DNA of 61,359 bases, the filler included, from Sphacelaria rigidula (taxonomy: Eukaryota), in NCBI GenBank assembly GCA_964200075.2. It is 9 parts of 9 records of this genome, joined end to end, with 100 filler letters (N's around TTAATTAATTAA, not from the genome) between each part and the next. Parts side by side here need not be neighbours in the genome. Positions count along the whole stretch, not along the records: positions 1 to 6,729 come from CAXNAA020018381.1; 8 more parts are not named here. The stretch is one strand, 5' to 3'. The notes beneath the pieces were generated by a model. The model was not told the origin of the DNA and ran no database searches. It saw nothing but the letters and a program-made list of their open reading frames with translations. The translations under genes and the position numbers were made by a program. Below, in pieces: positions 1-26,769 of the stretch (the stretch's first letter is position 1; each line of letters opens with the position of its first letter).

Positions 1-1770
1 CACCTTCGCAGATCGACAACAGCTTGGGCTTGTGGTCCTCCACGGAGTACGTCGTGCCCACCGCTTCCATCAAGGCCTCGAACTGGTCCTCCAGCAAGCA
101 GCCGTTCCCGTCTGAATCCACGGTGTCGAATGCCACCTCGGCCTTGGCTCTCTCTTCCTGCCGCTCCTTTTCCTCGTCGTCGTCGTCGTCCTCCCCGTCG
201 CTAGACACATCTACTGCGTCGCCAGATGCCGACGTATCGGCTGCGGTCACGACCGACGGAGGAGAAGACGTCGCCGCTATGGTAGTCCCGAACGTGAGCC
301 CGCCCGCCGCACTGCTCGCCACGCCCGCGGCGGGTACGACAGCGGACGCCGCGGTGCTGGACGCGACCTCTGCAGTACTTGATAATACAGGCGGTGAGCC
401 GAACGTGAAGCCTCCGACAGCATTCCTTGCGAGGCCAGCGGCCTCTGCGGCGGCGTTGTCATTATTTGCTGTGATACCGGCTTCCATGATCTCCGAAGCC
501 GACGTGGCCGCCGGCGCCGACCCAAACGTGAAGCCACCACTCCCGCCGCCCATGCCCACGACCATGCCCGACCTCCCGCCACCGACACCTGCCCCGCCCA
601 CAACCTTGTCCTCCATGCCCGGCCGCGCTGTCTCGCATGCCCCGCACTTGATACTGCTCTCGGGGTTCGACACAAGACACGCCTCGCACTTCCACCTCTT
701 CGCCTGACCCTCCAACAGAGACGCGAAGCCCTCCACGTCGGCCGTCGACTTCCCGGCCGGCGGGCCGCCCGCAGGTCCCGACTCCTCGTCGGACGACTCG
801 TCCTCGCCGAACAACCAATCGTCGTACCATCTCAAAAACGCGTCCCTCGATAGCCGACCACCTTCGCAGATCGACAACAGCTTGGGCTTGTGGTCCTCCA
901 CGGAGTACGTCGTGCCCACCGCTTCCATCAAGGCCTCGAACTGGTCCTCCAGCAAGCAGCCGTTCCCGTCTGAATCCACGGTGTCGAATGCCACCTCGGC
1001 CTTGGCTCTCTCTTCCTGCCGCTCCTTTTCCTCGTCGTCGTCGTCGTCCTCCCCGTCGTTAGATACATTTGCAGCATCCGCAAGTTCCGAGGCATCAACC
1101 GCGGTAATTACCGACAACGGAGACGACGTAGTCGTCAGCGGAGTTCCGAGCGCGAAGCCGCGTGCTGCATTGGTCACCACGTCTGACGAAGCTGGTCCAG
1201 TAGGTGCCGATTCAGGCGGTGAGCCGAACGGGAAGCCTCCAACAGCATCGGCCGTGACGCCAGCGGTGGCCAAGGCGGCGGTGTGATCCTCGACAGTAGG
1301 AGCAGATGCCGCGGTCTCCGAAGCCGACGTAGCCGCCGGCGCCGACCCGAACGTGAAGCCACCACTCCCGCCGCCCATGCCCACGACCATGCCCGAGCTC
1401 CCGCCACTGGCGCCTGCCCCGCCCACAACCTTGTCCTCCATGCCCGGCCGCGCTGTCTCGCATGCCCCGCACTTGATACTGCTCTCGGGGTTCGACACAA
1501 GACACGCCTCGCACTTCCACCTTTTCGCCTGATCACCCAACAGCGATGCGAAGCCCTTCACGTCGGCCGTCGACTTCCCGGCCGGCGGGCCGCCCGCAGG
1601 TCCCGACTTCTCGTCGGACGACTCGTCCCTGCCGAACAACCAATCGTCGTACCATCTCAAAAACGCGTCCCTTGATAGCCGACCACCTTCGCAGATCGAC
1701 AACAGCTTGGGCTTGTGGTCCTCCACGGAGTACGTCGTGCCCACCGCTTCCATCAAGGCCTCGAACTGGC
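1..1770. repeat. Coding tandem repeat, periods 858 and 825 bp (286 and 275 codons)
   Basis: caccttcgcagatcgacaacagcttggg recurs at 1, 859 and 1684. Both periods are multiples of 3. Confidence 0.95.
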
Positions 1771-3259
1771 TCTCCTCTATCCACCCCTCGCCACAGGCAT
1801 CAATCTTGTCGAACGCCCTCCCCGCCTTAGCCTTCTCCTCTCGCTTCTCCCCGTCATAAACGTCATCACTAGATGAGCCCGCGACTTCATCGTCACTGCC
1901 GTCTTCCTCGCTTGGAACTTTTGCCGCGGCCACTGAAGAATCACCAGTCCCACTCAATGGCGCACCGGGCGAGGGGATCGCGCCCGCATCGACATCACCA
2001 TCGGCATCGCGTGAAGCACCCCCTGCCGCCGCCCCGGCCCCTGCCCGCGATGAAGGCAGTATATTGGAAGCCACAGAAACTCCATTAACCTCAGTCAGTT
2101 TTCTAGTGTCACTGCCGAGGCCGGCGGCGGCTCCTTCGACTGCCGCTGCTGCAGCTCTCGCGGGCGCGGGTAGGGATGCAGACACCGACCGCTGTTGCTC
2201 TCTCTTCGCTGTGGCGCACCACTCGATAAACCGAGCGCGAGGCAGACGCGGGGAACAGAGGTCTAGCAGGGCGGTACCCTGCTCCTCCGCTGTAAATGGC
2301 ATGCCCGTGTTCTCCACAAGAGCCTCGAAATCCTTTTCCCCGATCCATCCCGTGCCAGCAGCATCGAAACGATCGAAAGCTCGCCCTGCGGCCGCATCGT
2401 CATCACTTTCACAGTCATAACCATCATCTTTACGATCTTGTCGCAGTTGTTGCTGAGCGGCTTCTTTACCCCCGTTTACCGCCAGTTTCGTTTTTTCCCC
2501 CGTGAGCGCTGACGGCGGGGGTTGGGAATCACCGCGGGAACGAGACGTCGTTGGAGATATGTTGCTGGCGCCACCACCAGTCGTTTTTGCGGCTCTCGCA
2601 GCTCTCGCGCCAAGAGCAGAGAAAAACGGGCCACCAGAGACAGCAGCCGCGAGGCTAGCGAAGGATGAAGCCACCAGGCTTATTTCCGGGGACCCGGGAT
2701 TGCGGAAGCCTCCGCAGGGGCGCCGGGGCGTGCCCCCGTCACTGCCGCTGGTAGCGGGGGCAGTGGCAGCGGCGCCTGGTTGGACTTGAGTTGGCCTTGG
2801 GGTGATAGGTGCGGATTTTCGGGTTGAAGGAGAGCGGAGCGCCAGCCCGTCCGAGGGAGGTGTAGACCCTACTCCAAACAGACCATCACCGCCGCTACTG
2901 CCATCGCAGCCCTGGCTTGCACCAAACCCACCGCCGAACAGACCCGTCGTGGTTCCATTTGTCCGCCCAGCGGGGTTGGAAAATAAGATGGACTTGCCAG
3001 CATCTGCACCGGCACCAGCACGAGCAGTAGTGGTGCTAGCCTCGCCACCGGTAGCAGCACCGAACAGGGAGCCGCCGAGAGGTGAGGGGCGCGAGAACGA
3101 ATGGAATGTGCTCGTTTGCTGCGGCACTGCCGACAGACCAAATGAGGAACCGAACAGGCCAGAACCTGCTGCAACTTGCGCACCCCCTTCACGTACAGCG
3201 GTTGGGCGTTGCATCTCCGATCCATCCTCGTGAAGCTGTCCGCATTTGGCGATGACCAC
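1..3259 (-). CDS. Large exon (>=1086 codons, open at window edge) with GLFG/FTFG motifs, four EF-hand-like modules and two RanBP2-type zinc fingers
   Basis: Acceptor cag at 3262-3260. I found no stop down to position 1, which explains its absence from the ORF track. Zinc fingers [20 protein letters not shown] at 1519-1460 and 694-635. EF-like segments [36 protein letters not shown] and [18 protein letters not shown] (twice). FG motifs GLFG (x3), SLFG, FTFG, FPFG, LTFG. Confidence 0.88.
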   Translation of the reverse strand, partial: MVIAKCGQLHEDGSEMQRPTAVREGGAQVAAGSGLFGSSFGLSAVPQQTSTFHSFSRPSPLGGSLFGAATGGEASTTTARAGAGADAGKSILFSNPAGRTNGTTTGLFGGGFGASQGCDGSSGGDGLFGVGSTPPSDGLALRSPSTRKSAPITPRPTQVQPGAAATAPATSGSDGGTPRRPCGGFRNPGSPEISLVASSFASLAAAVSGGPFFSALGARAARAAKTTGGGASNISPTTSRSRGDSQPPPSALTGEKTKLAVNGGKEAAQQQLRQDRKDDGYDCESDDDAAAGRAFDRFDAAGTGWIGEKDFEALVENTGMPFTAEEQGTALLDLCSPRLPRARFIEWCATAKREQQRSVSASLPAPARAAAAAVEGAAAGLGSDTRKLTEVNGVSVASNILPSSRAGAGAAAGGASRDADGDVDAGAIPSPGAPLSGTGDSSVAAAKVPSEEDGSDDEVAGSSSDDVYDGEKREEKAKAGRAFDKIDACGEGWIEESQFEALMEAVGTTYSVEDHKPKLLSICEGGRLSRDAFLRWYDDWLFGRDESSDEKSGPAGGPPAGKSTADVKGFASLLGDQAKRWKCEACLVSNPESSIKCGACETARPGMEDKVVGGAGASGGSSGMVVGMGGGSGGFTFGSAPAATSASETAASAPTVEDHTAALATAGVTADAVGGFPFGSPPESAPTGPASSDVVTNAARGFALGTPLTTTSSPLSVITAVDASELADAANVSNDGEDDDDDEEKERQEERAKAEVAFDTVDSDGNGCLLEDQFEALMEAVGTTYSVEDHKPKLLSICEGGRLSRDAFLRWYDDWLFGEDESSDEESGPAGGPPAGKSTADVEGFASLLEGQAKRWKCEACLVSNPESSIKCGACETARPGMEDKVVGGAGVGGGRSGMVVGMGGGSGGFTFGSAPAATSASEIMEAGITANNDNAAAEAAGLARNAVGGFTFGSPPVLSSTAEVASSTAASAVVPAAGVASSAAGGLTFGTTIAATSSPPSVVTAADTSASGDAVDVSSDGEDDDDDEEKERQEERAKAEVAFDTVDSDGNGCLLEDQFEALMEAVGTTYSVEDHKPKLLSICEG

Positions 3260-6159
3260 CTGCTTTGTCGGATGCCCAACGGCCGACAGAGCAAAACGCC
3301 GAGGTTTAAAGGAGCGAAGAAACGAGTACATAACACACAACACTACCCATAATGATTTAGGACAATCACAGAGAAGAACACCGGACGCGGGGGGAGGAGG
3401 GAAGGGAGAGGGGGGTCATTCGTGGCGCGGAAGACACAGTCTCCCTCCACTCAATAGTTGGTTCGTCGTGTGGTGTGTTTCTCTTTACTTCTTTTCACCC
3501 CGAGAGTCAGGAGACCACAACGCGGTGCACGTCACAAGAGCTCCAACGGGTGCACCCAACAGCAATTTTTTTACAAGTTTTGAGACGCCCGTTCAACAAA
3601 TACTTTGTTGCTAGCTACCCCAAGGGTCGTGAATACTATTTGGCACGTGATAATATCGCAAATCATACGTGCGGTCTATTCAGAATTCGAGTAATCACCA
3701 TCCCAGTGATTACATAATACATGCACTCGTACGTGACTGCCAGAGGCATTATATTATATCACTCTCCCCCCGCCCCCCCCTAGCGGGCACAGCCTACCGC
3801 TTCACCATGACACGAAAGAACCTTGGGGCCTCACCCGCTCATCCGGCGAGGGTTTTCCGTTTTGCTTGGGTGCCACCAGCGTCACCGACTTCATGCGGTC
3901 AAGCACCTTCATACCGCTTTGCACCTCCCCAAACACCACGTGCTTGCCGTCCAAGTGAGCAACAGCCTGGTGCGGGAGAACGCAGAGCAGCCCAAACAGA
4001 CAAACACACACAAAAATTGCGCGCGCGGAAAGTGATAGTGGCGGTAAGGGGGGACGATCAATTCTTTTGCGGGTTGAGAGTAACAAACGGGGGCACCAGT
4101 GAGAGAGGCACGCTAAGGCGAATAGAGTATCCGATGGTAATGCTATTGCGTGGCAACAAGCTGAGGGCGTGTCTCAGCACCCTTTTGTTGTAAACGAAAA
4201 AATGGGGTGGTGGGCTCGATTTGGGTGAAATTCGCTCATCTTTCTCGCGGTGGGTCCAAGCCAGTTCTCAAGCTTTCGATCGAAAAAAAAAGGGAAATTC
4301 GTGAAACGGTACATGGTCAATCGTATACGGTACAGACAGTCCGTTCTGTCTACACTGCGTGCAAGCGGTGTGTATTGTGTGCGTGTGTGCGTGTTTCGTA
4401 CAGGAGGATAGAACAACGTGCAGTGCCGACAGCCCAGTACCATCGGTTCTCTCTGCTCACAACGCCACGTGAAAAGGACTTCAGCGACGTGCAGCAGTGT
4501 GTCGCTTGCACTGTCCATGAGCGTCGACGCAACTTGGTTGCCCACCGTACCACGCAGTTCCGTCCTTGATGTCTACCATGAGAGAAGATGCGCAAGTTCT
4601 CGCTGACAAAAAATAAGCAAAGCATATCCAACTACTGCAGCGTATCTTCCCCTGGAATCAACACGCGCCCTATGCTGGACGGTTGCGGTGGTAGCTGAGA
4701 ATGAGTTGGATGGAGTGTGCATGGTCTTGTGAACAGGTGTCATCTGGCGTGGTGATCTGTAGGAGAGGAGTCAAGTGCCGCTTCGTGGCTTTCGACCGCA
4801 TGTTTTCGATCGAAAAGGATTATTTCCGTGTCAGATAGTTCTTCTCCGCGTGCCACTAATTATAATTTTGAGTTGAGGCCTTCTAGGAACATTCATGTGG
4901 TGCACCTATCAGATCGGCATATTAATATCGATCGCACTTTTTCGATTAAACACAAGTGCGAAGGCACGCCCTGAGGAGCAAAAAGTAAATATATAAGTAC
5001 ACTGATGGCGGCTACCAACACATTTAACGAGACAGCCCCATGGGCGTGAATATTGAGTATTGAGTATCGAATTGAATGCTAAAAAATTGAATGCTGGAGA
5101 ACCCCCCCACTCCCCCCTCCTTCCCCGGTCCTCCTCTTGTCGTTGAACCCTCATCACTTTTGAGTATCTCACCTTGAGGGTGATGAAAAACTGACTTCCG
5201 TTCGTGTTTTTCCCGGAGTTGGCCATGCTCAACAGACCATGCTTGTGGTGACGCATGAAAGGCTCGTCCTCGAACTTCCCCTGAAAAACACAGCGCCACC
5301 AAAAAAGAAGAGTTGGGAAGCGCAGTGCAAAGAATCAAGACAGCCGTAGACAGATGAAGCCCACAGTCGAGAAAAAAAAAAGGAAAACAGAGCACGGTTG
5401 AGTAAATAACTGGGCAGCAAGCATTCCCCACCTCTCAAAAAAGACACGATTTCTCGTTGCATGACTGCCAAACGTTCGGGAGAATATTTACCTCAGGGTC
5501 ACTAGCTCGAAGGAGAATCGCACTAGCTGGAAATATAATCGTCTCAACAGAATAACCGATACAGTGAAGCATTGTGAATGCCAAACCGCGTCAACACACG
5601 GGGTTATGATTGATCATATTCTTGTCTTGCCCAGCACTACTGTAAACTTGCCTTGCCCAGCACTACTGTATACTCGCCTTGCCCAGCATCTACTGTATTT
5701 TTGCCATGCTCAACACTCCCGTATATTTCGCTACATGCATGTACTGACTAAATGGAATAGAAAAACACACCCTGGACGATAGATTACGCTGTCATGAAGT
5801 GTACCGCGAAAAGTATCGACCACTGCGTCTATTGCAAGAGACAACAGATTCCATACAATGTTGACAGTGTAATCCATTGTCCAGGGTATGGAGAAAAAAG
5901 TAAGAAAGGGCTACATAGCATCATTCTTTAGTACGCACTTCGCTCTAGGGCTAAGCCAGTCAGCGCGCGGGCTCGGCTCTTCATTGAAACTCAAGGTCTA
6001 TTCCTCATCTAGTTTTCTTCGTTTCCCTTTCCAAGGCCGCCTCACCCCGTATATGGACTGGCCCCCGGTCCCATCCCCCTTGGTGAAATCGCCTCCTTGG
6101 ACAACAAAACCCGGAATAATTCTATGAAAGGCACTTCCTTCGTATCGCAACCCTGGTCC
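1..6159 (-). CDS. Partial multi-exon gene: cyclophilin (PPIase) domain followed by FG-repeat / EF-hand-like / RanBP2-type zinc-finger repeats (RanBP2/Nup358-like nucleoporin candidate); both ends missing
   Basis: Phase-0 GT-AG exons 6159-6046 ([38 protein letters not shown]), 5280-5173 ([36 protein letters not shown]), 3966-3835 ([26 protein letters not shown]...PDER) and 3259-1 (VVIAKCGQL...). They join in frame into the middle and C-terminal part of a cyclophilin fold, which runs straight into the long exon. Confidence 0.9.
4290..4985 (+). repeat. Intronic dispersed repeat, diverged copy of 31840-32530
   Basis: Shared blocks such as accacgcagttccgtcc.tgat and ggttgcggtggtagctgaga, in the same order in both copies. 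Confidence 0.75.
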
Positions 6160-6729
6160 CTGATGAACTCATAGAGAAAAATAGCAAAAACAAGGAGGGG
6201 GGGGAGATGGAGAGAGACAAGATGAGTGATGGAGAAAATTGCAAAAACGAAGGTGAGAGAAAAAAAAAAAGAGATGGAGAAAGACAACAAGATCGTAAAA
6301 GCTCTTCAGGGTGCGACAAGTGGGGACAAAAATATTTTTCGGTATTACAATCCTTGTCCTTCCTCGATGAAGATAACATAGCAGGCAACAAGACCAATAC
6401 CAATACCAAGACCAAGATGAACATGAGACAAAAATAATCGAGGCCACCAAAGCTGAGTGGGGTGAACATACGGCAAACAGGTACCGTGCGTCAAGGCATA
6501 TTAACGGCGTCCGGATCATGACTTTCTTGGCACCTGAAAAACTCATGAACCGAGAATGATATTTAGGGGAAGTGATGAACAACGAACTCCGAATGCAATA
6601 GCAGCAGATACAGACATGAGCAAAAATGGCCAGAAATCTGATGGATCACCTGGTGGGGGGTGTACTCATGATCATGCTTGCCATAGTCATAAGACCATTG
6701 ACCTCGCATCCCTACAAAGCCGGGACGGA

Positions 6730-6829
6730 NNNNNNNNNNNNNNNNNNNNNNNNNNNNNNNNNNNNNNNNNNNNTTAATTAATTAANNNNNNNNNNNNNNN
6801 NNNNNNNNNNNNNNNNNNNNNNNNNNNNN
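6730..6829. other. Artificial 100-nt contig spacer (also at 13559, 20388, 27217, 34046, 40875, 47704, 54532)
   Basis: N-run / TTAATTAATTAA / N-run, with stops in all six frames, repeated every 6829 or 6828 bp. Confidence 0.98.
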
Positions 6830-7878
6830 TATTACAGGTTTGAGAAAAGTGTATGTATGCTTCAGGCCCCATGACTGCAGATTAATTAACCTTGTTGACT
6901 TACGTAGGTCCCGCATTCATCTGAAGGTGGGAAGTATATACCGGCGCTCACGTCGAACTTGTCGCACATGGCGTGCATGTACGAGCCATTCACGCCTTGA
7001 GTCATGAAGAAGGGTTGACTGCGTGGATTACATCACGCCTTGAGTCATGAAGAATGGTTGACTGCGTGGATTACAACTGATGTACGAACCGCATGATTTA
7101 TTCATTGAGATGATGACTTCGAGTTGACTCACGAGTTGATTTGTCCTAACCGTGAAATGAAGTCTAAATGAGCCAATCAGCATCAATCACAAGTACACGC
7201 ATCGCCTCGAAAAAACGACCTGGTACACATGCAATGTAATATTTGTAAAAAAGTACGTTTGTATAGCAAGCCTGTGACTGACGTTGCTGTACATCTGTTC
7301 ACAGGGTCACAACAACAGGAGGATATATGCTACTGCTCGTGTTCTTGTTGTGCCCCTGTTGTTACACCATGCAGTTGTGCCAATCTTTATATTTTTCCGC
7401 GGATTTCTCAGCAATAAATCAGAGGATTTGCGGTTTCTCCCCCACGCTTGCCACACACCCAAACTAGGGAATCGAGCCAGCGATTTCCTTAACGCGTGAC
7501 ACAAACGCCGCACGAAACCACGTGTACAAAAAAAAAAAGTGTTTTTCTTTCAGTTTTTGGGACTTTTGGAGTTTGCCATGGTGACTTGTTGTGTGCGGGG
7601 TGGTGTAGAGTGCCACAGACCGGCTTGCTTCCTGTGTCGAGAAAAACGCGTTGACGGTGCTACAGCTGTCGCATACTGATCAAAGATAATCAGGGAGTGA
7701 GCGTGTGTCCTACTCGGAAATCGGAACAGCTCGGAGCAGCTGATGATGTGCGAAGTATTTATTACTCCTCCTTGTTCTTGTTTTTTCCCTGCACTGGTTG
7801 TTTTGGTCGTTATGGCCCTCATTCGCCCCGATAACAGGGATAGCAGTATGCATGACGACGCGCATCCAGGCGACTCAC

Positions 7879-8145
7879 GTTTGGATGATGTCGAAGCAAC
7901 CTCATGATGGACACCTCTCTCAGAATATGCCGAGCATCCGAAGCTCTGTCAGCGATAGGGCATATTCGCTTTATAGCCACTTTCCCCCCTGTCTTCCTCT
8001 CTAAACCAGCAGCCACCACGCCGAAAGAGCCACATCCAAGAAGCCCCACAACTTTGTACCGGTTCGGGTCTATGGTGAACACCACCCCACCGATCTGAGT
8101 CCCGCTCGAGTCGTCGTTGTTGAGTTGCTGTGCCGCGTCCTCCAT
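7879..8145 (-). CDS. Mitogen-activated protein kinase, first coding exon (subdomains I-III)
   Basis: MEDAA...RYKVVGLLGCGSFGVVAAG...KVAIKRI...DARHILREVSIMRLLRHHPN, then a gtgagt donor at 7878. No downstream exons were found in the contig. Confidence 0.88.
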
Positions 8146-11100
8146 TTTTCAATCCTTTTTCGCCCGCATCAATATGTCTAAATTATCTGGAACAGATATC
8201 ACTCTATGCATTCACAGGATTACGCAGACGCTATGAACATCAATGGTGTAGAGCTTCCAGTTGCCCTCATAGCAAAGCGGAGATTGGGCCAGTCGCTGTA
8301 CTTGGTTGTCTGGAACGGCCGTTCGACAAGAAGTCGTCCACCAGCTTTTCAAGGCCTATATACTTACTGCTCTACCAACTCAACCATAGCCCTTGAAAAC
8401 TCCTGTCTACCATAATTTAGAACTTAGTCGATACATCCTATGCGATGTAAGGGCTTGGACTCGCAGAGCACACTCGCTAAACATGCAGCAGAGATACACA
8501 ACATACAGCGATGGACCCCAACGAGAAACGCGGCCTTTTCGGTGCCGTATCGCGATGGGGGTCTGAAGGGAAATGAAACCCAAGGTGACAATGAAAAAAG
8601 GACATAATGTCGGTCATGCACACCACAAGAAGCATTGGTCCCGGGTCGGAGTGTCGAAGATCTAGGTATCTCTCCCAGCTGAATTCATCATCTGGGCTTT
8701 TTGTTGAAGGGCTGCCCTGGTCGATTAAAGAAAAGCCGTCAGAAACAGCACCTGTAAGCAATTGTGACAGACATTGCGCGGAGGTTGTGTCTCAACACTG
8801 CTTGTGGACATCAAGATGGAGGATTCTAAGCTGCAGCGATTGCACGACACGCTCAAGAAGCTTGCGCCCAAGGGCAATCACGTGAGTTGCGTTCTTGCCT
8901 CACCTATATACATGAATTTATTTTGTGTTATAGTGAATTCTGTCCGTGCCTCGTACTTTCTTCTCGGCGTCATCATGTCCGTCGCAGAAGTCAACTCTTG
9001 ATACGTCCCTTCTTGACCACCATCCGTGGGCATCCCAGGCGTGGATGTGACGTCGAGATTAAAGGTTCAGTGCTGCAGTAGAAATGCTGCGTAGATTCGG
9101 ATGTTCACGGCGGTCGGCTTTTGAGAGTCATGTGGTGAATGTGGGGTGCACACACGAGGGTAGTGTGTGCGTCGAGACTGCAGGGCAGCCGTACGTTTAC
9201 TCCCGTTGAATATGACGGTATATAACACCCCCTTCAAGCGTACAGCTCCCGTGCTGTATTTTGATTGATTCGGTTGATTGTTGCACCTTACTGGCTGGGC
9301 CGTCTAAGAAGCGGACTTTCCTGCTGGTTCCGATCTATTGCGAGCCGTGCCTACTATGACACATCGTGGTAATCTGTAAATCAACGCGCGTCTTTCACTT
9401 CACGTAGCAGTGCGATCTGACAAGTTCCCACGAAACGAAATACCAAACTGTAGTCAGCTGCGAAGTGTAGAGAGTTGAGGGTGGCATGTGCGGCAGAAAT
9501 AAGGGGGGGGAACGGCTGAAATCGCATTTACAGTTACAGTCGGTTGTGCCGCGGCCGTAGAGGGACGGTGCTGCACTAGTTGTGGTTGTACAACAATGCA
9601 TGTACTGTTCGCGCGCAGGGTTTGACACGATGTATGTGCGAAGACTCCACCTTCAACCCCGTACATTTATTTGTTTTTTCCCGTGAGTTGTCGGCGACCA
9701 AACATTTCAGGACAGTTTTTCTCGGAACATGATAGTGAATAACTCCAAAAAAAAACAAGAAAAAATGGGGAGCAGAAGATGGAGTTTTTGCACATACGTC
9801 GTGTACTCGTACTTTGTGTGAAAAAATCATAGAAAACGACCCAGAATTGAGCTGCTAAATCGCGTGTGCGCATCCCTGTCCGCGTCGTGGGCGACCCAGC
9901 CTGTATCTGATACCCCAGGAATCCAGCCGTGGTCATCATCCACATGATATACGTACCCGGGACAGTCTCTGAAGAAAATGAAGAAAACAGAAAGGTAGAA
10001 CAGACAAAACAGAGTGAGTTGAGAAAAGGAGAGAAAAACTATAAATGGCCTGCGTCTCCAACACGTGCAGTGGGTTCATAGGTACGGGGTTTTTTCATAA
10101 TAGTACAAGCACTATTTTCAAGTAATTTGGTTCAAAATTTTGACCAGTCCCTCCACGCTTCATCGTACATTTCTTATTTCGTAATTGATTTTAGTACGCA
10201 CTCTGTCACACATGGTTTTGCCGGGCTTCTGGTGCCCGCAGCCGCAGTACATAGGCGTGCGGAGGCAGGATATTCAAGACAACGACGGTCTATTGTACGT
10301 GTACCCAACGTTTGCTTTGAGGATTCGCCGTGCCCACAGTATGGTTGCGGTGGCCGGGGTTGGCGGCGCAGTCTCCATTTGCGCTTAGCTTGCTGCTGCA
10401 TCCTGCACGGCCTGTTACACGAAGCGTTACTTAGGACAGCTCTATCATCGTCGTTGTGTGTTGTTTTCATGCTGCGCGGTCGGAACAATACTTGAGAAAA
10501 GGACCGTACCCGCATCAATGCTGCTGGCTCCGTTATGCAGGCTGTCGTGCTGTTGTTCTGAATGGCTCGTGTTGATCGGTGCCGTACAGACATGAAACGC
10601 ATAGTGCCAACTGGCTAGCCAGCGCTGGCGAATCTTCTTGCTATACAGATACCGTCGGTATCGCGACAGAAAGTTGTTGACGTATGTGCTGGAGACAACC
10701 AAGCACTCCACATACGGGGGATCAGATAGTCAACGCAGTGATGTATCTCTGTTGCGTGTACGATCCCGTGTGCTAGAACGCCGCTTCCTTTCGGAGGGAT
10801 ACGCTCCGCCTGCTTCATGACCTGATGCTTGTTGAAATAGTATCGATGCTAACTCCACATTTTTTTTTCAGTTCTCCTGCTAACAGCGGGAGATGAAGTT
10901 CAGACCAGGCCTGAACAACAAATAATCAAATAGTGTAGTCTCGTTGACTGATGAGGTTTGAGTCGGGCACGTATCAAGCGAAAATCCCGACAATAATCAT
11001 GGGGAACAACGATCGATAATTTCAGTTCAATTATTTTGTAACAACCCGTACCTATGAACTCTGTGCCGCGATATGGCTTCGGTGGAGAAGGTCTTGCGCA

Positions 11101-11659
11101 GAAACCACACTCTCAACAATCGTAAAAAAGAATTAAAAAAACGTGGGAACAGATTGCGGCTCATCTATTTCGACCTCACTATTGCGGTTATGAAGCACTA
11201 ATCCATGAACCCTACGGAAACGTGGCACCAAAATGCAACTGGCATACACCGGGAAGGAAAAACATATGAAGAGTTGGGGAAAGAGGGAGAAAAGAGAAGG
11301 TTTCATAACAGAAGTGATGAAACCCGAAGGACAGTACGGTGGAGCAGAAGCAAACACACAGCAGGATCCACTACAGAACCACCGACCAAGGACATGTGCA
11401 AAAACCGATAGCAAAAAACATGGGTACGTGAGTTTCCGTGTTGGCCCACTTTTTCGCGTTGATTCCTGTTGATAGTCGAACATTTTGAATTCCTCGTGAG
11501 CTCTTGCTGTTCTTGTGCTAGCGAGTTCAGTTGTCGGGTAGGCGGCTCTCGAAGCAGTAGCCTCTCGTTTGTGGCGGTGGTTCGATTATCGTTTGTCTTC
11601 GCGTAGCCCCGCGTACTCGAGTACTCCCGCCCCTTTCTCGGCTCCAAGATGTCATTAGG

Positions 11660-11910
11660 GCGGAGAGAACGAGGGTTCGATTACCGATGCGTTGGGTTTT
11701 TTCTTCGTAATATCTGATGACCACCGTGGAAAGCGTGAGAACGTGAGAAAACAAAGTAGTCGACCGAGTATGTCTGACGAAAGTTGACGCGGTGCGGGAG
11801 TGCTGATAGTCATGACCCAATCCGCGAGACAAAAAGGCAAGGCGTGTGTCATGGGAGAGATGGGATGATCCCTTGAGACCACGGACTTGTCCCGAGGAAG
11901 GGGAGGGGTT
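11660..11910 (+). repeat. Dispersed repeat ending in a G-rich tract; related copies at 44150-44281 (+) and 51176-51410 (-)
   Basis: Shared motifs gatcccttgagaccacggac and gttgacgcggtgcgggag...ccaatccgcgagac. Confidence 0.75.
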
Positions 11911-12014
11911 CAAAGTGCGACAGTATATATAGAGAGAGCTATGTAGAAGGTTCCCCTTCGGGAGGGTGGTGCGGGTCCTCCCGGGGGTGACGCAAGTCTA
12001 AAATATATGGTTAA

Positions 12015-12114
12015 CCCTTGGACTGCGATGCGGGTAGTCCATCTGGGCCACGCATGATTTTCCCAGTGAAATTGATGTCGATTGAGCAGGTGATCTACCC
12101 TCGCGGTCAAAGGG
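12015..12114. mobile_element. piggyBac-like miniature element (~100 bp)
   Basis: TTAA|CCCTTGGACTGCG ... CGCGGTCAAAGGG|TGAA: imperfect 13-bp TIRs with a TTAA-like target. An inverted relative lies at 54864-54942. Confidence 0.6.
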
Positions 12115-13658
12115 TGAAGAAAGGCTGTTGTATATCAATCCCAATGTACAGTAGTAATAGTGGCTGTACAAAACATTGTGTGTATCATCGGATGTCGTTC
12201 GGAAATATGGAAATTCGGACGGAGGCCGACGGCGGAACCGCCGGCGTAAGACATGTGTGCGGTATCCCCGAGGTGCCAGAGTGCGAAGTAGCTCTCGTGC
12301 TACAAAGACATGACCGCGAGAGGCACTTCCCGAAAAATTGGAATGCGTTGAGCATTCTTGGCATGTTATTTGGACATCACTCTGGCTTCCACATCACCGG
12401 GCCTTTTATCTAAACAAGGTGATTGTTTTTTTGCGGCAAAACATTCCTGTGCTGCCGTGCTGCTGTGCCTTGTTCACCTCGCCAACGGCACATTGCACGG
12501 TCTTGTGTTTGTTTGCTGCCGACTAAGGCGAAGGCAATGTTCAATTGTTTTCAACTGCTTTGCCCTCAATGTTCTCGTGACATTGGCGGCATAACCGGTG
12601 TGTTTGTGCCCCAAATGAACGACAACGCGACAAAGAGAAACACGGGGGAAAAATATCCCGTCAACAGTTATCATGTTTCAAGCTTTCCATGATCATTATC
12701 TTGAAAAGGGCTTTGTGGTTCGGAATGGACACCCCGCGAAAAATAGCCACTTTGGGCGACTTTCGGTGGCCAGAACACGCGCCACGGGTATCAGATGATA
12801 CCCAAACCTGAACGGTAGGTTACCGCTGTGCCTTCTTGGTGCGCTGCGTAAGAAAGCGCGGGAAAAAATGCCTTGCTGCCAGGGAAAACTCGGCGAAAAT
12901 GGTGACAAATGTGACGTATATATATATATATATATATGCCACACACCTCGAATGGCACGGTGTATGGTCACACCGTAACGTTTCACAGAGCACAGTAACA
13001 TTACAGGCTGGTTCACGCAAAAGACCCAAAATTCTGTCATCAGCAAATGCCTTCTGCAATACGCACCCAATAACCGCATACATGATATTATACTGACCGC
13101 AATAAACGAAGAGGGTGACATAGCCGGATTTCTGTGTGAGGCTATTGTGGTGGCGCTGTGGACAAAAATGTGTCTCGACCAATCAGCCCCTTGAAATTTC
13201 CACCGATTCTCCACATGCTTTGAATCGTAGTAACCGTCATCACCTCAGGAATCTAACGGGAGAAACAGATTTGAAAACGATTCCAACGGGGTCGAATGGT
13301 ACCCGAAACCGTGACGTTTCAGTGATGTGGAGTTTGGCGTCGTCTGATTTCCACTCACGGTACGTAGAACAGACTCGGGGAGCCTCGTGACGATGCCCCT
13401 CATACCTGTTGTAAAATAGCTCAGATCATCCTCAAACTTGGCAGTTCCGTAGGTATTGATGCCCCAAATGGGAAAAAAAAAAAAAAAATGTGTGTTCTTG
13501 GCAAGAGTTCAAAGCTTCTTCCCGTCTCTACCGTCTTTCCGGGGCACCAGTAAAAATANNNNNNNNNNNNNNNNNNNNNNNNNNNNNNNNNNNNNNNNNN
13601 NNTTAATTAATTAANNNNNNNNNNNNNNNNNNNNNNNNNNNNNNNNNNNNNNNNNNNN

Positions 13659-14481
13659 GTGCTGGCTTGGAAGCGTAAGCTTCAATCATCGCCATCTTAG
13701 CCTTGTGAAGGAAATGGCTGGCATCTGTCATCCCACACCCCGCCGCATAGCTTTCAATGGGGCCGAAGTACTTGGCGAGCTCCGAGTACGGCGGAGGCTC
13801 AGCGCTATCCCCCCCCGTGTCTCCGTCGTGCTCCTCCTCCTGCTCTACAGAGAGCCGCATACGCGAGGTAGTTCTGTCCGCTTTCTTTTCCTCTCCACGT
13901 TTTTTGCGGTTGGATTCGCTAGCTGCGTTCGCTTGCGCTCTACGCTTGCGCGCCGCAGCCTTTGAGGTAGCCCCAGCGGATCGCTTGGAAGCGCACGTTG
14001 GGCAGATACGATAGAGTTCGCTCCCATCCTCTTCCTCTTGTTCACCGCACACGCCATGAAGCCGACCTCCACACCCTCCACGACACTCATGACCTTGACT
14101 GGGTCCGAGACTCTGGTTGGGAATCAGGCAGAGCTCTCCTGCTGCACAGGGCATCGTAGAGTAATCCTCTACAATCTACAGCTCTGTTGTGGATGGTAGG
14201 GGTACAGTACAGCAATATACTGTACAGTAGATGATAGCTGTTGCTCTGCGTGTCTGGTATGTGCGGGGGAAACGTGTGAACTGTGCGTGTTTTACAGCCT
14301 TTGCAGCCGGGGACCCACACTATGTAGGTCTCACCATGCTCCAAATGCGCACTAAACTGGACGGTACCCCTTATAGTGCGGCACCCGCACTAAACCGGGT
14401 TCCGTCTGTGACAAGCGATTTCAGCCGCATTAAACCGGGCAGGCGCACTCTATAACCCGCACTATACAAGGCCACCTACTG
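13659..14481 (-). mobile_element. Internally deleted pogo/Tc1-mariner-superfamily DNA transposon (ORF 14154 to contig end)
   Basis: Terminus TA|CAGTAGGTGGCC at 14481 with tagtgcgg-like subterminal repeats. The ORF has a Cys/His zinc-finger-like N-terminus (C..C...HECRGGCGGRLHGVCG...RICPTC), then a basic stretch and RMRLSVEQ (resembling the start of a CENP-B-type HTH) joined directly to a C-terminal-like segment. No DDE core. Confidence 0.55.
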
Positions 14482-24445: not shown

Positions 24446-26769
24446 CATGTAAACCATGACCTGAAACATCTAAACCTGACGAATCGAAAGACACACACAA
24501 AATAAAATATGTGTCTACTCGCTGTCCCCAGTGTTCATCAAGGCGCGACGGTGCCTGTTGAACAGCGTGAATGGGAGCGACTTTGTAAGGATATCAGCGT
24601 GTTGCCACTCCGAATCTACATGTACAATCCTTACTGCGCCTGTCCTAACCAAGTCCCTAATATAGTGCCATCTCACGTCGATATGCTTACTACGACTTGA
24701 GCTGAGAGGGTTGTCGGCTAGAGCCTTAGCCCCCTCGTTGTCTTCATGGAGAACGATGTCGTACTCTACTTGTCGTCCCAACACAGCCCTTGGTTGTAGG
24801 GAAGACAGTACCGACCTGACAAACATATACTCCTTCTCCCCTTCTGCCATAGCTACGTACTCGGCTTCGGTAGTTGACAGGGTAACGCAGTGTTGCGTTT
24901 GACTGGTACTTGATACTGCTATCCCCCCGTACATGACAGCTACCCCGGAAACCGATTGCCGGTCTGTATCTTTCTTCGCGTAGTCAGCGCCACAACAGAC
25001 GGTGAGCCTACTTTCCCCTGAACTAAAAGTCAGACCGTAATTTCTGGTCGTGTTGAGGTACGCCAAAACTTTCAACACCCCTCGCCAGTGTCTTTCACAT
25101 GAGTCGTGTGATTGTCGGGCCAGGTCTCGGGCTGCACTTGAATATCAAGCCTGGTTACCATAGCCAACAACAACCCTCCTACGGCACTCCTGTATGGTCT
25201 ATCTAAAACCTTGTCACCTTGCTTCACCGGTCCCAAGTCTGCAGATACTGATGCGGGAATATCAGGAAATTCCGTACTCGAAACGCTTCAGCATGGTGTC
25301 GACGAAGGTCGTCTGATTCACGTACATGTTACCTCCAACCAATTCCTCTCTATGGCACACCCCACATACCACTGAACTTCACCTAAGTTGTTCGTTGGGA
25401 ATCTGTCATTTAGGATATTACATACCCTCTCCACTCTTTGCGTTTCTCCCCCAATTAGAATGTCGTTCACATGCACAACAAGTTTGGCTCACACTTCTCC
25501 CCCATTCCTCCTGTTTGCACACACACGGGTCTGCCTTACTTTGTTGCATCCCTGCATCCTCCATCAATGTTTTGTTCAAGAGGAGGGACCATTGCCTCCC
25601 TGCTTGCTTGACCCCGTATATGGATTTCTCCAGTCTGACCGTGCTACCTGTCAAGGGGCCACACCCTTCTGGGAGCTTCATGAACACATTCGTGTCCATT
25701 TTGGCTCGTACGAAAGCCTGGTTAACGTCGAAGTGATACAGTGGCCATCCCCTCTGTACTGCCACGGCCATGGCCAATTTTATTGATGTCATGGCCGAGG
25801 TGGCTGCAAACGTCTCAAAATAATCCACCGCGTATCTCTGACCAAACCCTAGCGCCACTAATCTAGCCTTCGCTTTAGGTATTGCACCATTAGTAGCGTC
25901 GGTTTTCCAAGTGAACACCCATTTGGCTGTGATTATGTTTACTCTTTTTGGAATTTCTCCTTCTGAGAATGTACCTGCGGTTTCATGTCCATTCAGTTCT
26001 GTACGCATGGCACTCAATCGTATTTCCTTGTATTCCGACTTTTCTATGTCTTCTACTGTTACGGGGGGAGTTTTCACATCTCTCACGTGCAGACCGATGG
26101 GGGAACGCGAACCAAAACTGGGCTCCGCCTCTGTCCCGTCTTCTGCCGAAAAACAAAAATACTCCTGCTTCGCAATAGTCTCCTCGATCAGCATGGTCGC
26201 GCTGCCTCCCACCTCTGGTCCGGCTGCTGCAGTGATCAGCTCCGTCACCCCGCACTTGTCCTCCGCCATTCCATACCGTACAGTTTCAGCTTGAGCCCTC
26301 GCCTGGACCCTCGCCATCGCGCGGGAGAATTTTTCGTTTCTTTCCTACGCCAGCGTTGTCTCCAGTTCCTCTGCCGCCGATGCCAGCTCGTTCCGGTCGG
26401 CTGCCGCTCTCGTCGCACTGCGCGTGCGACCTGCCATTTGTGGAGTCAGAGACAACTCATCGTCGAGTGCAAGACGGCGTAGCTCCGTCCTTGGGATTTC
26501 GGGAGCTCCCCCCCCCCCCCCCCCCCCTTCGCCCCGGGGGGGGCTAGCGGTGCCGGGGCGGTCGCTGCCGGCTGGTCCGGCGGAGGGGTTGCTTTGNNNN
26601 NNNNNNGGGGCAGGGACAACCCCTCGGCGGGGGCCACGCGGGCGAGCCCCCGCCCTGGGGTTTTGGGGGGCCCCCCCCCCCCCCCCGTCGTTGCGCTCAG
26701 GGGTGTCTACGGTTGTCGGTGTCGTTGCTGTCGGCGTTGTCGGCGGCGTGGTTTCTGTCGGCGTTTGCG

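Follow-up and report, generated by a model that had tools for sequence, protein, structure and literature searches.

RanBP2/Nup358 combines in one large nucleoporin a cyclophilin domain, an array of C4 zinc fingers and phenylalanine-glycine (FG) repeats, together with, in human, four Ran_BP1 (PF00638) domains. Nup153 carries Ran-type fingers followed by FxFG repeats, and the NUP159/NUP214 beta-propeller is a hallmark of cytoplasmic-filament nucleoporins. Passages of two reviews (PMC4758718, PMC8421043) and of a comparative survey (PMC2951903) regard Nup358 as restricted to metazoa or opisthokonts, and in those of the two reviews it is usually portrayed as a metazoan invention. A passage of one of them (PMC4758718) describes TbNup149 of Trypanosoma brucei, an FG nucleoporin with few FGs (18), whose repeat units are nearly identical and each contain a putative zinc finger; it reports no cyclophilin for this protein. 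Here we describe a gene of Sphacelaria rigidula (assembly GCA_964200075.2), located in a window of 61,359 bases (the whole stretch of DNA that was analysed), in which a cyclophilin domain is joined to an array of repeat units with EF-hand-like pairs, zinc fingers and FG motifs. It resembles TbNup149 as described there and belongs to another lineage. The gene probably falls in a family of peripheral FG nucleoporins in stramenopiles, of which it is a brown-alga-type member; it is akin to the local Nup214-type protein and carries an attached cyclophilin. The main new result, obtained by sequence comparison, is that the EF-hand, finger and FxFG unit recurs in long oomycete proteins with a NUP159/NUP214 propeller, at about 35% identity.

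The gene lies on the minus strand and its visible part comprises four phase-0 exons of 114, 108, 132 and 3258 nt (Table 1), identified by reading the sequence and by script. All four lengths are divisible by 3; every exon is preceded by an AG acceptor, and a GTGAG donor follows each of the three that are complete. The end of the cyclophilin domain (..CGQL) falls inside the large exon and the reading frame is unbroken. All three junctions are crossed gap-free by ortholog alignments (tblastn). The stretch is present in eight public sequencing runs, none of them recorded as RNA, four of which were examined (X1, X3, X5 and X8; X1, X3 and X8 come from two studies). The RNA nature of X1, X3 and X8 is deduced from the removal of introns and zero depth in intron bins, not taken from their records. 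Each of these three runs has a single contig, about 2.2 kb long, whose matches run in succession over 1740-3256, 3832-3965 and 5172-5279. At its joints 3256/3832 and 3965/5172 the skipped sequence has the ends CT..AC when read on the plus strand and GT..AG on the gene strand; these joints correspond to the predicted 3259/3835 and 3966/5173 once the stated cut offsets are applied. Among the listed pieces of record 11 of X3, 5279 is joined to 6045 and the contig continues over 6045-6161; about 340 additional 5' bases of this record have no place on 1-6700. In the DNA-like run X5 the splice joints are all absent, and 1740-4297 is covered by an unspliced contig. The original prediction had proposed four phase-0 exons linking a cyclophilin to a region of more than 1000 residues with FG motifs and fingers. 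Exon lengths, splice sites, Pfam matches and spliced contigs all agree with it, the junctions 5173/3966 and 3835/3259 being found in three runs and 6046/5280 in the listed pieces of one. The automatic model P0001 has two additional in-frame introns, 2456-2641 and 2048-2113, which are unsupported because the RNA-type contigs of the three runs read ungapped through both.

The window is a chain of pieces of about 6729 bases. The first spacer occupies 6730-6829 and spacers recur every 6829 bases; each consists of paired 44-N runs at this fixed period with a six-frame stop spacer between them (N44-TTAATTAATTAA-N44). The contig recorded for the gene's own predicted protein, P0001, measures 6729 bases. 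Genuine context of the gene is therefore limited to 1-6729, and the gene is truncated at both ends. A motif scan of 6160-14000 and a tblastn search of the whole window with three orthologs found no upstream cyclophilin exon, likely because of this piecewise construction, and the first ~36 positions of the cyclophilin profile thus lie outside the window.

The spliced model P0001 matches the Pro_isomerase (PF00160) profile from 37 to 158 (5e-35), so that about three quarters of the domain lie within the window. The three small exons match it separately, with E values of 1.7e-7, 1.2e-9 and 7.6e-8 in the order of transcription. The cyclophilin of the ortholog P0013 aligns end to end with cyclophilin A (CypA, PPIA) at 189 bits and with the RanBP2 cyclophilin at 173 bits. 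Its active-site stretches, including LDGKH, align with those of CypA and the window protein has the same residues. The position which we take to be Trp121 of CypA is occupied by His in the ortholog and by His, Asn or Tyr in other cyclophilin-type relatives. Unlike CypA, the algal domain forms part of a larger protein, which exceeds 1400 aa. These comparisons point to an active-looking domain of the CypA type, generic in its sequence and with no specific tie to Nup358.

The large exon encodes 1086 aa. Pfam profiles identify Zn_ribbon_RanBP (E 5.7e-15, two stretches), EF-hand_6 (2.8e-14, four stretches) and EF-hand_7 (1.4e-12). It contains 13 FG, three as GLFG and four as FxFG, and two matches to the finger pattern W-x-C-x2-C-x3-N-x6-C-x2-C; motifs of these kinds had been read from the sequence at the outset. 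FG dipeptides are enriched over composition (13 against 5.5 +/- 2.1 in shuffled sequences; a count of 13 is reached in 11 of 5000 shuffles). The units were copied recently: 1-184 and 859-1042 agree at 100%, and the identity of other copies is 78-88%. An alignment of 13 units from seven proteins (four of the 11 proteins tried gave no unit by the start pattern and were excluded) shows a constant order: an acidic helix, a strongly conserved EF-hand-like pair, an acidic Ser-rich stretch, a finger segment with the consensus GFA.L.KSQA.GWKC.ACLV.N...KC..CE, and three GGFxFG islands. These islands are conserved amid variable linkers of Ala, Ser, Thr and Pro. Ten aligned sequences show no variation at the GFA Phe, at any of the four Cys, at the L-V pair following CxxC or at the first GGFxF. 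The AlphaFold model of one unit is confident for the EF pair alone, with four helices (residues 1-78, pLDDT 72-91). The trait expected of an FG nucleoporin, FG repeats in disordered low-complexity linkers, is present in the form of FG enrichment, conserved islands and linkers with pLDDT below 50, with a low FG density. Summed contig depth at 225-1120, within the repeat units, exceeds that of unique exon sequence several-fold in each of the four runs; since depth is not equal to copy number, this only hints at unit copies beyond those in the window. The long plus-strand open reading frames (ORFs) over 1-2800 are antisense to this GC-rich repeat exon.

Sequence searches assign the fingers to the Nup358/Nup153 subtype, including its upstream Phe. 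When finger 1 was compared with PDB sequences (phmmer), the 20 best rows were all RanBP2/Nup358 or Nup153, led by human RanBP2 (7r5j, 1.7e-27, summed over the array); the Nup153 finger pair 3gj7 scored 5.6e-11 and Nup153 matches ranged from there to 1e-3. The first match outside these two proteins is ZRANB1 (1.5e-3), and ubiquitin-binding fingers appear from that level on. The conserved Phe of GFA.L aligns with F1717 of human NUP358 (domain 7 alignment, RanBP2 residues 1709-1750). According to passages of the preprint of Bley et al. (10.1101/2021.10.26.465790), F1717 is buried in a hydrophobic pocket of Ran, and a Phe or Leu in an extension of about 10 residues contacts Ran in all structures of Nup358 or Nup153 fingers with Ran. 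Among 20 fingers from cyclophilin-type proteins, 15 have the L-V pair after CxxC. Binding of Ran by the algal fingers would be a well-grounded expectation.

The helix-loop-helix fold of the EF-hand pair is supported by the Pfam profiles and by the four helices of the AlphaFold model. In a Foldseek comparison with PDB, the top rows listed are almost all EF-hand proteins (aequorin, calmodulin, centrin), at E 2.8e-3 or worse and with no row at E<=1e-3. No match to the canonical 12-residue calcium loop (a PROSITE-like pattern) was found in the window protein or in eight relatives: the loops of the window protein end in Q or miss ligands at positions 3 and 5. The original prediction of interleaved EF-hand-like modules therefore stands as to the fold, with four units recognised by Pfam, and not as to a canonical calcium loop.

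A word-indexed search with the large exon returned 19 proteins. Apart from the gene's own model and a weak match to a fish Nup153, the named ones are brown-algal (Ectocarpus spp., Laminaria digitata and Hapterophycus canaliculatus), in agreement with the stramenopile source that had been presumed. Two relatives are full length, P0013 (1462 aa) and P0165 (1904 aa), and have an N-terminal region, a full cyclophilin, an FG linker and three finger units. P0021 (2935 aa), which begins within the last part of the cyclophilin, counts at least eight fingers, so that the gene in the window may extend well past its truncated 3' end. The fusion of cyclophilin and array is found in the brown-algal models P0003, P0013 and P0165, and again in the distant relatives P0033, P0093 and P0156. 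Outside brown algae the cyclophilin-bearing relatives are P0033, the P0093 group, P0156 and P0153, and the Aureococcus protein P0170, a cyclophilin protein with FG-type repeats, resembles the P0093 group. The layout of the full-length relatives is an N-terminal region, a short KY motif, the cyclophilin, a GLFG-type linker and the tandem array of units. P0153 (1751 aa) departs from it: FG repeats, EF pairs, a finger and the KY motif precede a cyclophilin at the extreme C-terminus, which is the order of Nup358. A search of the ESM Atlas with P0153 gave no usable match.

To explore the wider family, the 174-aa window unit P0020 was compared by HMMER with 1.84 billion representative sequences. Matches numbered 994 at E<=1e-3 and, among these, 347 at 1e-10 and 51 at 1e-30. 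Many of the matching proteins are 2000-3300 aa long and align over the whole unit at about 35% identity. Among 18 relatives scanned, five carry a beta-propeller above the Pfam cutoff (Beta-prop_NUP159_NUP214) and one more below it; all six have the finger and five of the six an EF-hand match at the threshold used. A search with one oomycete protein of this kind, P0027 of Peronosclerospora sorghi, retrieved 48 proteins, nearly all from oomycetes (Phytophthora, Peronospora, Hyaloperonospora, Bremia, Pythium, Globisporangium, Lagenidium, Aphanomyces and Albugo). The propeller family PF16755 is precomputed for 34 of the 48 by our count, and several bear the source name 'Nuclear pore complex protein' or 'Nup214'. 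By BLASTP the window unit and P0027 are 37% identical over 158 aa (E 9e-28), in an alignment spanning the EF pair, the acidic stretch, the finger and GGFxF. The unit probably recurs in a diatom as well: P0025 of Nitzschia inconspicua carries it and matches the oomycete propeller region (phmmer, 2.3e-10), with no propeller listed by Pfam. The oomycete Nup214-type proteins (P0027, and P0214 of Phytophthora cinnamomi) thus share with the algal protein the unit of EF pair, finger and GGFxF, the FG repeats and the KY motif. They differ in their N-terminal beta-propeller, in lacking a cyclophilin and in having their KY motifs at the C-terminal end; the pair after CxxC in their fingers is mostly M-V or S-V. 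As to the survey of the architecture across stramenopiles suggested by the original prediction, these searches find the unit in oomycete propeller proteins and cyclophilin-bearing relatives beyond brown algae, in an order that is not constant.

The KY motif is a helical segment of about 38 aa (..FY..HNP.KL..VD..L.KY.G.E..LF..L..KY). It directly precedes the cyclophilin in cyclophilin-type proteins (P0013, P0033, P0093, P0156 and P0165) and occurs in one or two copies near the C-terminus of the oomycete propeller proteins (P0027, P0214 and others). The pattern has 96 matches in 255 collected proteins. It corresponds to no Pfam family at E<=0.1 and has no significant match among PDB sequences (best 0.66). 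Together with the unit matches, these occurrences indicate that cyclophilin-type and propeller-type architectures share three elements: the unit, the FG repeats and the KY motif. The latter may be an anchoring or oligomerisation element.

The original prediction had considered the gene either as convergent with Nup358 or as a rearranged relative of it. A true ortholog of the metazoan protein, descended from a common ancestral gene and merely reordered, would explain the shared trio of cyclophilin, Ran-type fingers and FG motifs, the best finger scores, which go to RanBP2, and the Nup358-like position of the cyclophilin in P0153. This is nevertheless very unlikely. No Ran_BP1 domain was found by Pfam in the window exons or in 31 relatives, full-length P0013 and P0165 included, and in the precomputed lists of the P0027 relatives PF00638 occurs only in a fish RanBP2. 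The Nup358 N-terminal alpha-solenoid, oligomerisation element and SUMO E3 region are unlisted in Pfam scans of P0013 and P0165, for which no dedicated profile or fold comparison was made and with the 5' end of the gene itself outside the window. The cyclophilin is no nearer to RanBP2 than to CypA, the EF unit and KY motif, absent from Nup358, tie the family to Nup214-type proteins instead, and Nup358 is itself treated as metazoan or opisthokont. Membership in Nup358 was rejected on the absence of a Ran-binding domain from these scans, the generic cyclophilin and the different domain order, the algal cyclophilin standing before the fingers in a protein of stramenopile distribution; the Pfam scans of the full-length models also detected no N-terminal domain of Nup358. 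The proposed kinship with Nup358 was accordingly abandoned, as was the idea that the reversed order is a fixed trait, contradicted by P0153. Of the domains suggested for checking, Pfam recovers cyclophilin, zf-RanBP and EF-hand in the visible exons and no Ran-binding domain. What persists of the nucleoporin reading is the probable pore role, strengthened by the presence of the unit in propeller-bearing oomycete proteins. Convergence with Nup358 on a Nup214-related chassis appears to fit better than a rearranged Nup358.

The cyclophilin could also belong to a multidomain protein whose site of action is not the pore and whose fingers recognise RNA (ZRANB2/RBM type, as in splicing) or ubiquitin (NZF type). 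Fingers of the RanBP2 type bind RNA or ubiquitin in other families, weak PDB matches link ours to those of ZRANB1/TRABID, RNF31 and TAB2 (E 1.5e-3 to 0.07), and long-tailed nuclear cyclophilins are known, a match to NKTR being among those seen. We regard such a role as unlikely: all 20 best PDB rows are nucleoporins, the Ran-pocket Phe and the GGFxFG islands are conserved, the unit is common to propeller-bearing Nup214-type proteins, and the pair after CxxC is L-V instead of the T-F of ubiquitin-binding NZF fingers. An analogue of Nup153 at the nuclear basket, rather than on the cytoplasmic face, is similarly improbable. Fingers followed by FxFG are the Nup153 layout, Nup153 fingers score well, and the fish Nup153 is the sole named match outside stramenopiles in the large-exon search; the unit and KY motif are found, however, in proteins with a NUP159/NUP214 propeller, an argument by kinship only. 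Nup153 has neither cyclophilin nor EF-hand, and its N-terminal pore-targeting region was not detected in the algal protein. That a cyclophilin gene and a separate FG/finger gene were wrongly joined is scarcely credible. In favour of such an artefact are the shortness of the window piece, its truncation at both ends and the two introns by which P0001 differs; against it, single contigs of X1, X3 and X8 continue from the cyclophilin exons over 1.5 kb of the large one, the frame is continuous up to and beyond the end of the cyclophilin, and the same fusion is repeated in three brown-algal models and three distant relatives.

Several observations weigh against a peripheral FG nucleoporin of Nup214 kinship. 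The propeller (PF16755) was not found by Pfam in the window exons or in the brown-algal models, including full-length P0013 and P0165, and no recognised pore-anchoring domain was found in the exons or models scanned. In propeller-type fingers the upstream hydrophobic residue is shifted, with F at -7 in 31 of 46. The density of 13 FG in 1086 aa is low for an FG nucleoporin, and the finger as well as the linkers of the modelled unit have pLDDT below 50. The names 'nuclear pore complex protein' are automatic annotations. A calcium role of the EF pair is doubtful, no loop matching the canonical pattern. Finally, the pore face is read solely from kinship with Nup214-type proteins, and the fingers are equally like those of the basket protein Nup153.

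With these points counted, we still favour the reading as a peripheral FG nucleoporin that is kin to the local Nup214-type protein. The protein would sit at the pore periphery, most likely on the cytoplasmic side, which is proposed because the unit and the KY motif are common to the local Nup214-type protein. Each finger would dock one Ran, preferably in its GDP form, and the FxFG and GLFG motifs would dock karyopherins. The cyclophilin might isomerise prolines of cargo or of transport factors. For the EF-hand pair, in which no loop fits the canonical calcium pattern, we propose a structural role or one in partner binding instead of calcium sensing.

Table 1. Features of the Sphacelaria rigidula gene in the window (all on the minus strand)
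Feature	Position	Strand	Description and support
Part of next upstream intron	6160..6729	-	Extends to the end of the genuine piece; 6497-6700 is a very high-copy repeat
Exon, 38 codons	6046..6159	-	Cyclophilin segment with active-site stretch, Pro_isomerase profile 37-63; acceptor CAG 6162-6160, donor GT 6045-6044; tblastn 85% identity to ortholog P0013; X3 contig piece 6045-6161
Intron, GT..AG	5281..6045	-	Spliced out in X3 record 11; 5621-5697 is a 26-nt tandem repeat
Exon, 36 codons	5173..5280	-	Cyclophilin profile 75-112; tblastn, contigs
Intron, GT..AG	3967..5172	-	High-copy repeat at about 4257-4928; joint 3965/5172 in X1, X3, X8
Exon, 44 codons	3835..3966	-	Cyclophilin profile 115-144; tblastn, contigs
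Intron, GT..AG	3260..3834	-	Joint 3256/3832 (cut +3) in X1, X3, X8; unspliced in X5
Large last visible exon, 1086 codons	2..3259	-	Open at window start; end of cyclophilin domain, FG linker, EF-hand/zinc-finger/FxFG units; RNA-type contigs gapless over 1740-3256
GLFG/LFG-rich linker	2873..3160	-	Exon residues 34-129; 6 FG including 3 GLFG
First EF-hand-like pair	2195..2380	-	No finger behind it; kept in Ectocarpus relatives
Repeat unit 1	1037..1852	-	Acidic helix, EF-hand-like pair from 1816, upstream Phe and zinc finger 1442-1558, FTFG 1346-1357, FPFG 1223-1234
Repeat unit 2	179..1036	-	Acidic helix, EF-hand-like pair from 991, upstream Phe and zinc finger 617-733, FTFG 521-532, FTFG 398-409, LTFG 287-298
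Repeat unit 3, start	2..178	-	Cut by window edge; DNA 1-184 is 100% identical to 859-1042

The introns carry repeats of their own. The tandem repeat of the first visible intron has 2.9 copies with a 92% match. In X5, contig depth reaches 18,000-129,000 at 4257-4928 and up to about 945,000 at 6497-6700, against about 64 in adjoining sequence, and many odd joints are found at both places; these stretches are probably high-copy mobile or satellite repeats. In the rest of the window a Copia-type reverse-transcriptase fragment at 25418-26344 on the minus strand, in another piece (Pfam RVT_2, E 6.8e-32), is the sole result among 19 long ORFs scanned.

A literature search within one collection of papers found no description of a stramenopile nucleoporin bearing such fingers or a cyclophilin, nor of the stramenopile pore periphery, in agreement with the original suggestion of an undescribed protein. 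The present family would provide named candidates for this periphery and would add the EF-hand pair as a new recurrent pore-associated module. To our knowledge, the purpose of the cyclophilin domain and finger array of Nup358 is poorly understood. The algal protein is akin to Nup358 in offering several Ran-type fingers and a prolyl isomerase on one FG protein, and a second independent lineage with the same finger subtype, FG repeats and cyclophilin in a single protein would be a natural comparison for the function of this combination. A tentative scenario, in which we place less confidence than in the family assignment itself, is that a Nup358-like device arose independently in stramenopiles: an ancestral cytoplasmic-filament nucleoporin of the Nup214 type would have possessed the finger and EF-hand array, and a paralog would have fused a KY motif plus cyclophilin to it. 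If this is true, the combination would point to a general functional need and not to an animal peculiarity, and the EF-hand pair would be a pore module without counterpart in animals, fungi or plants.

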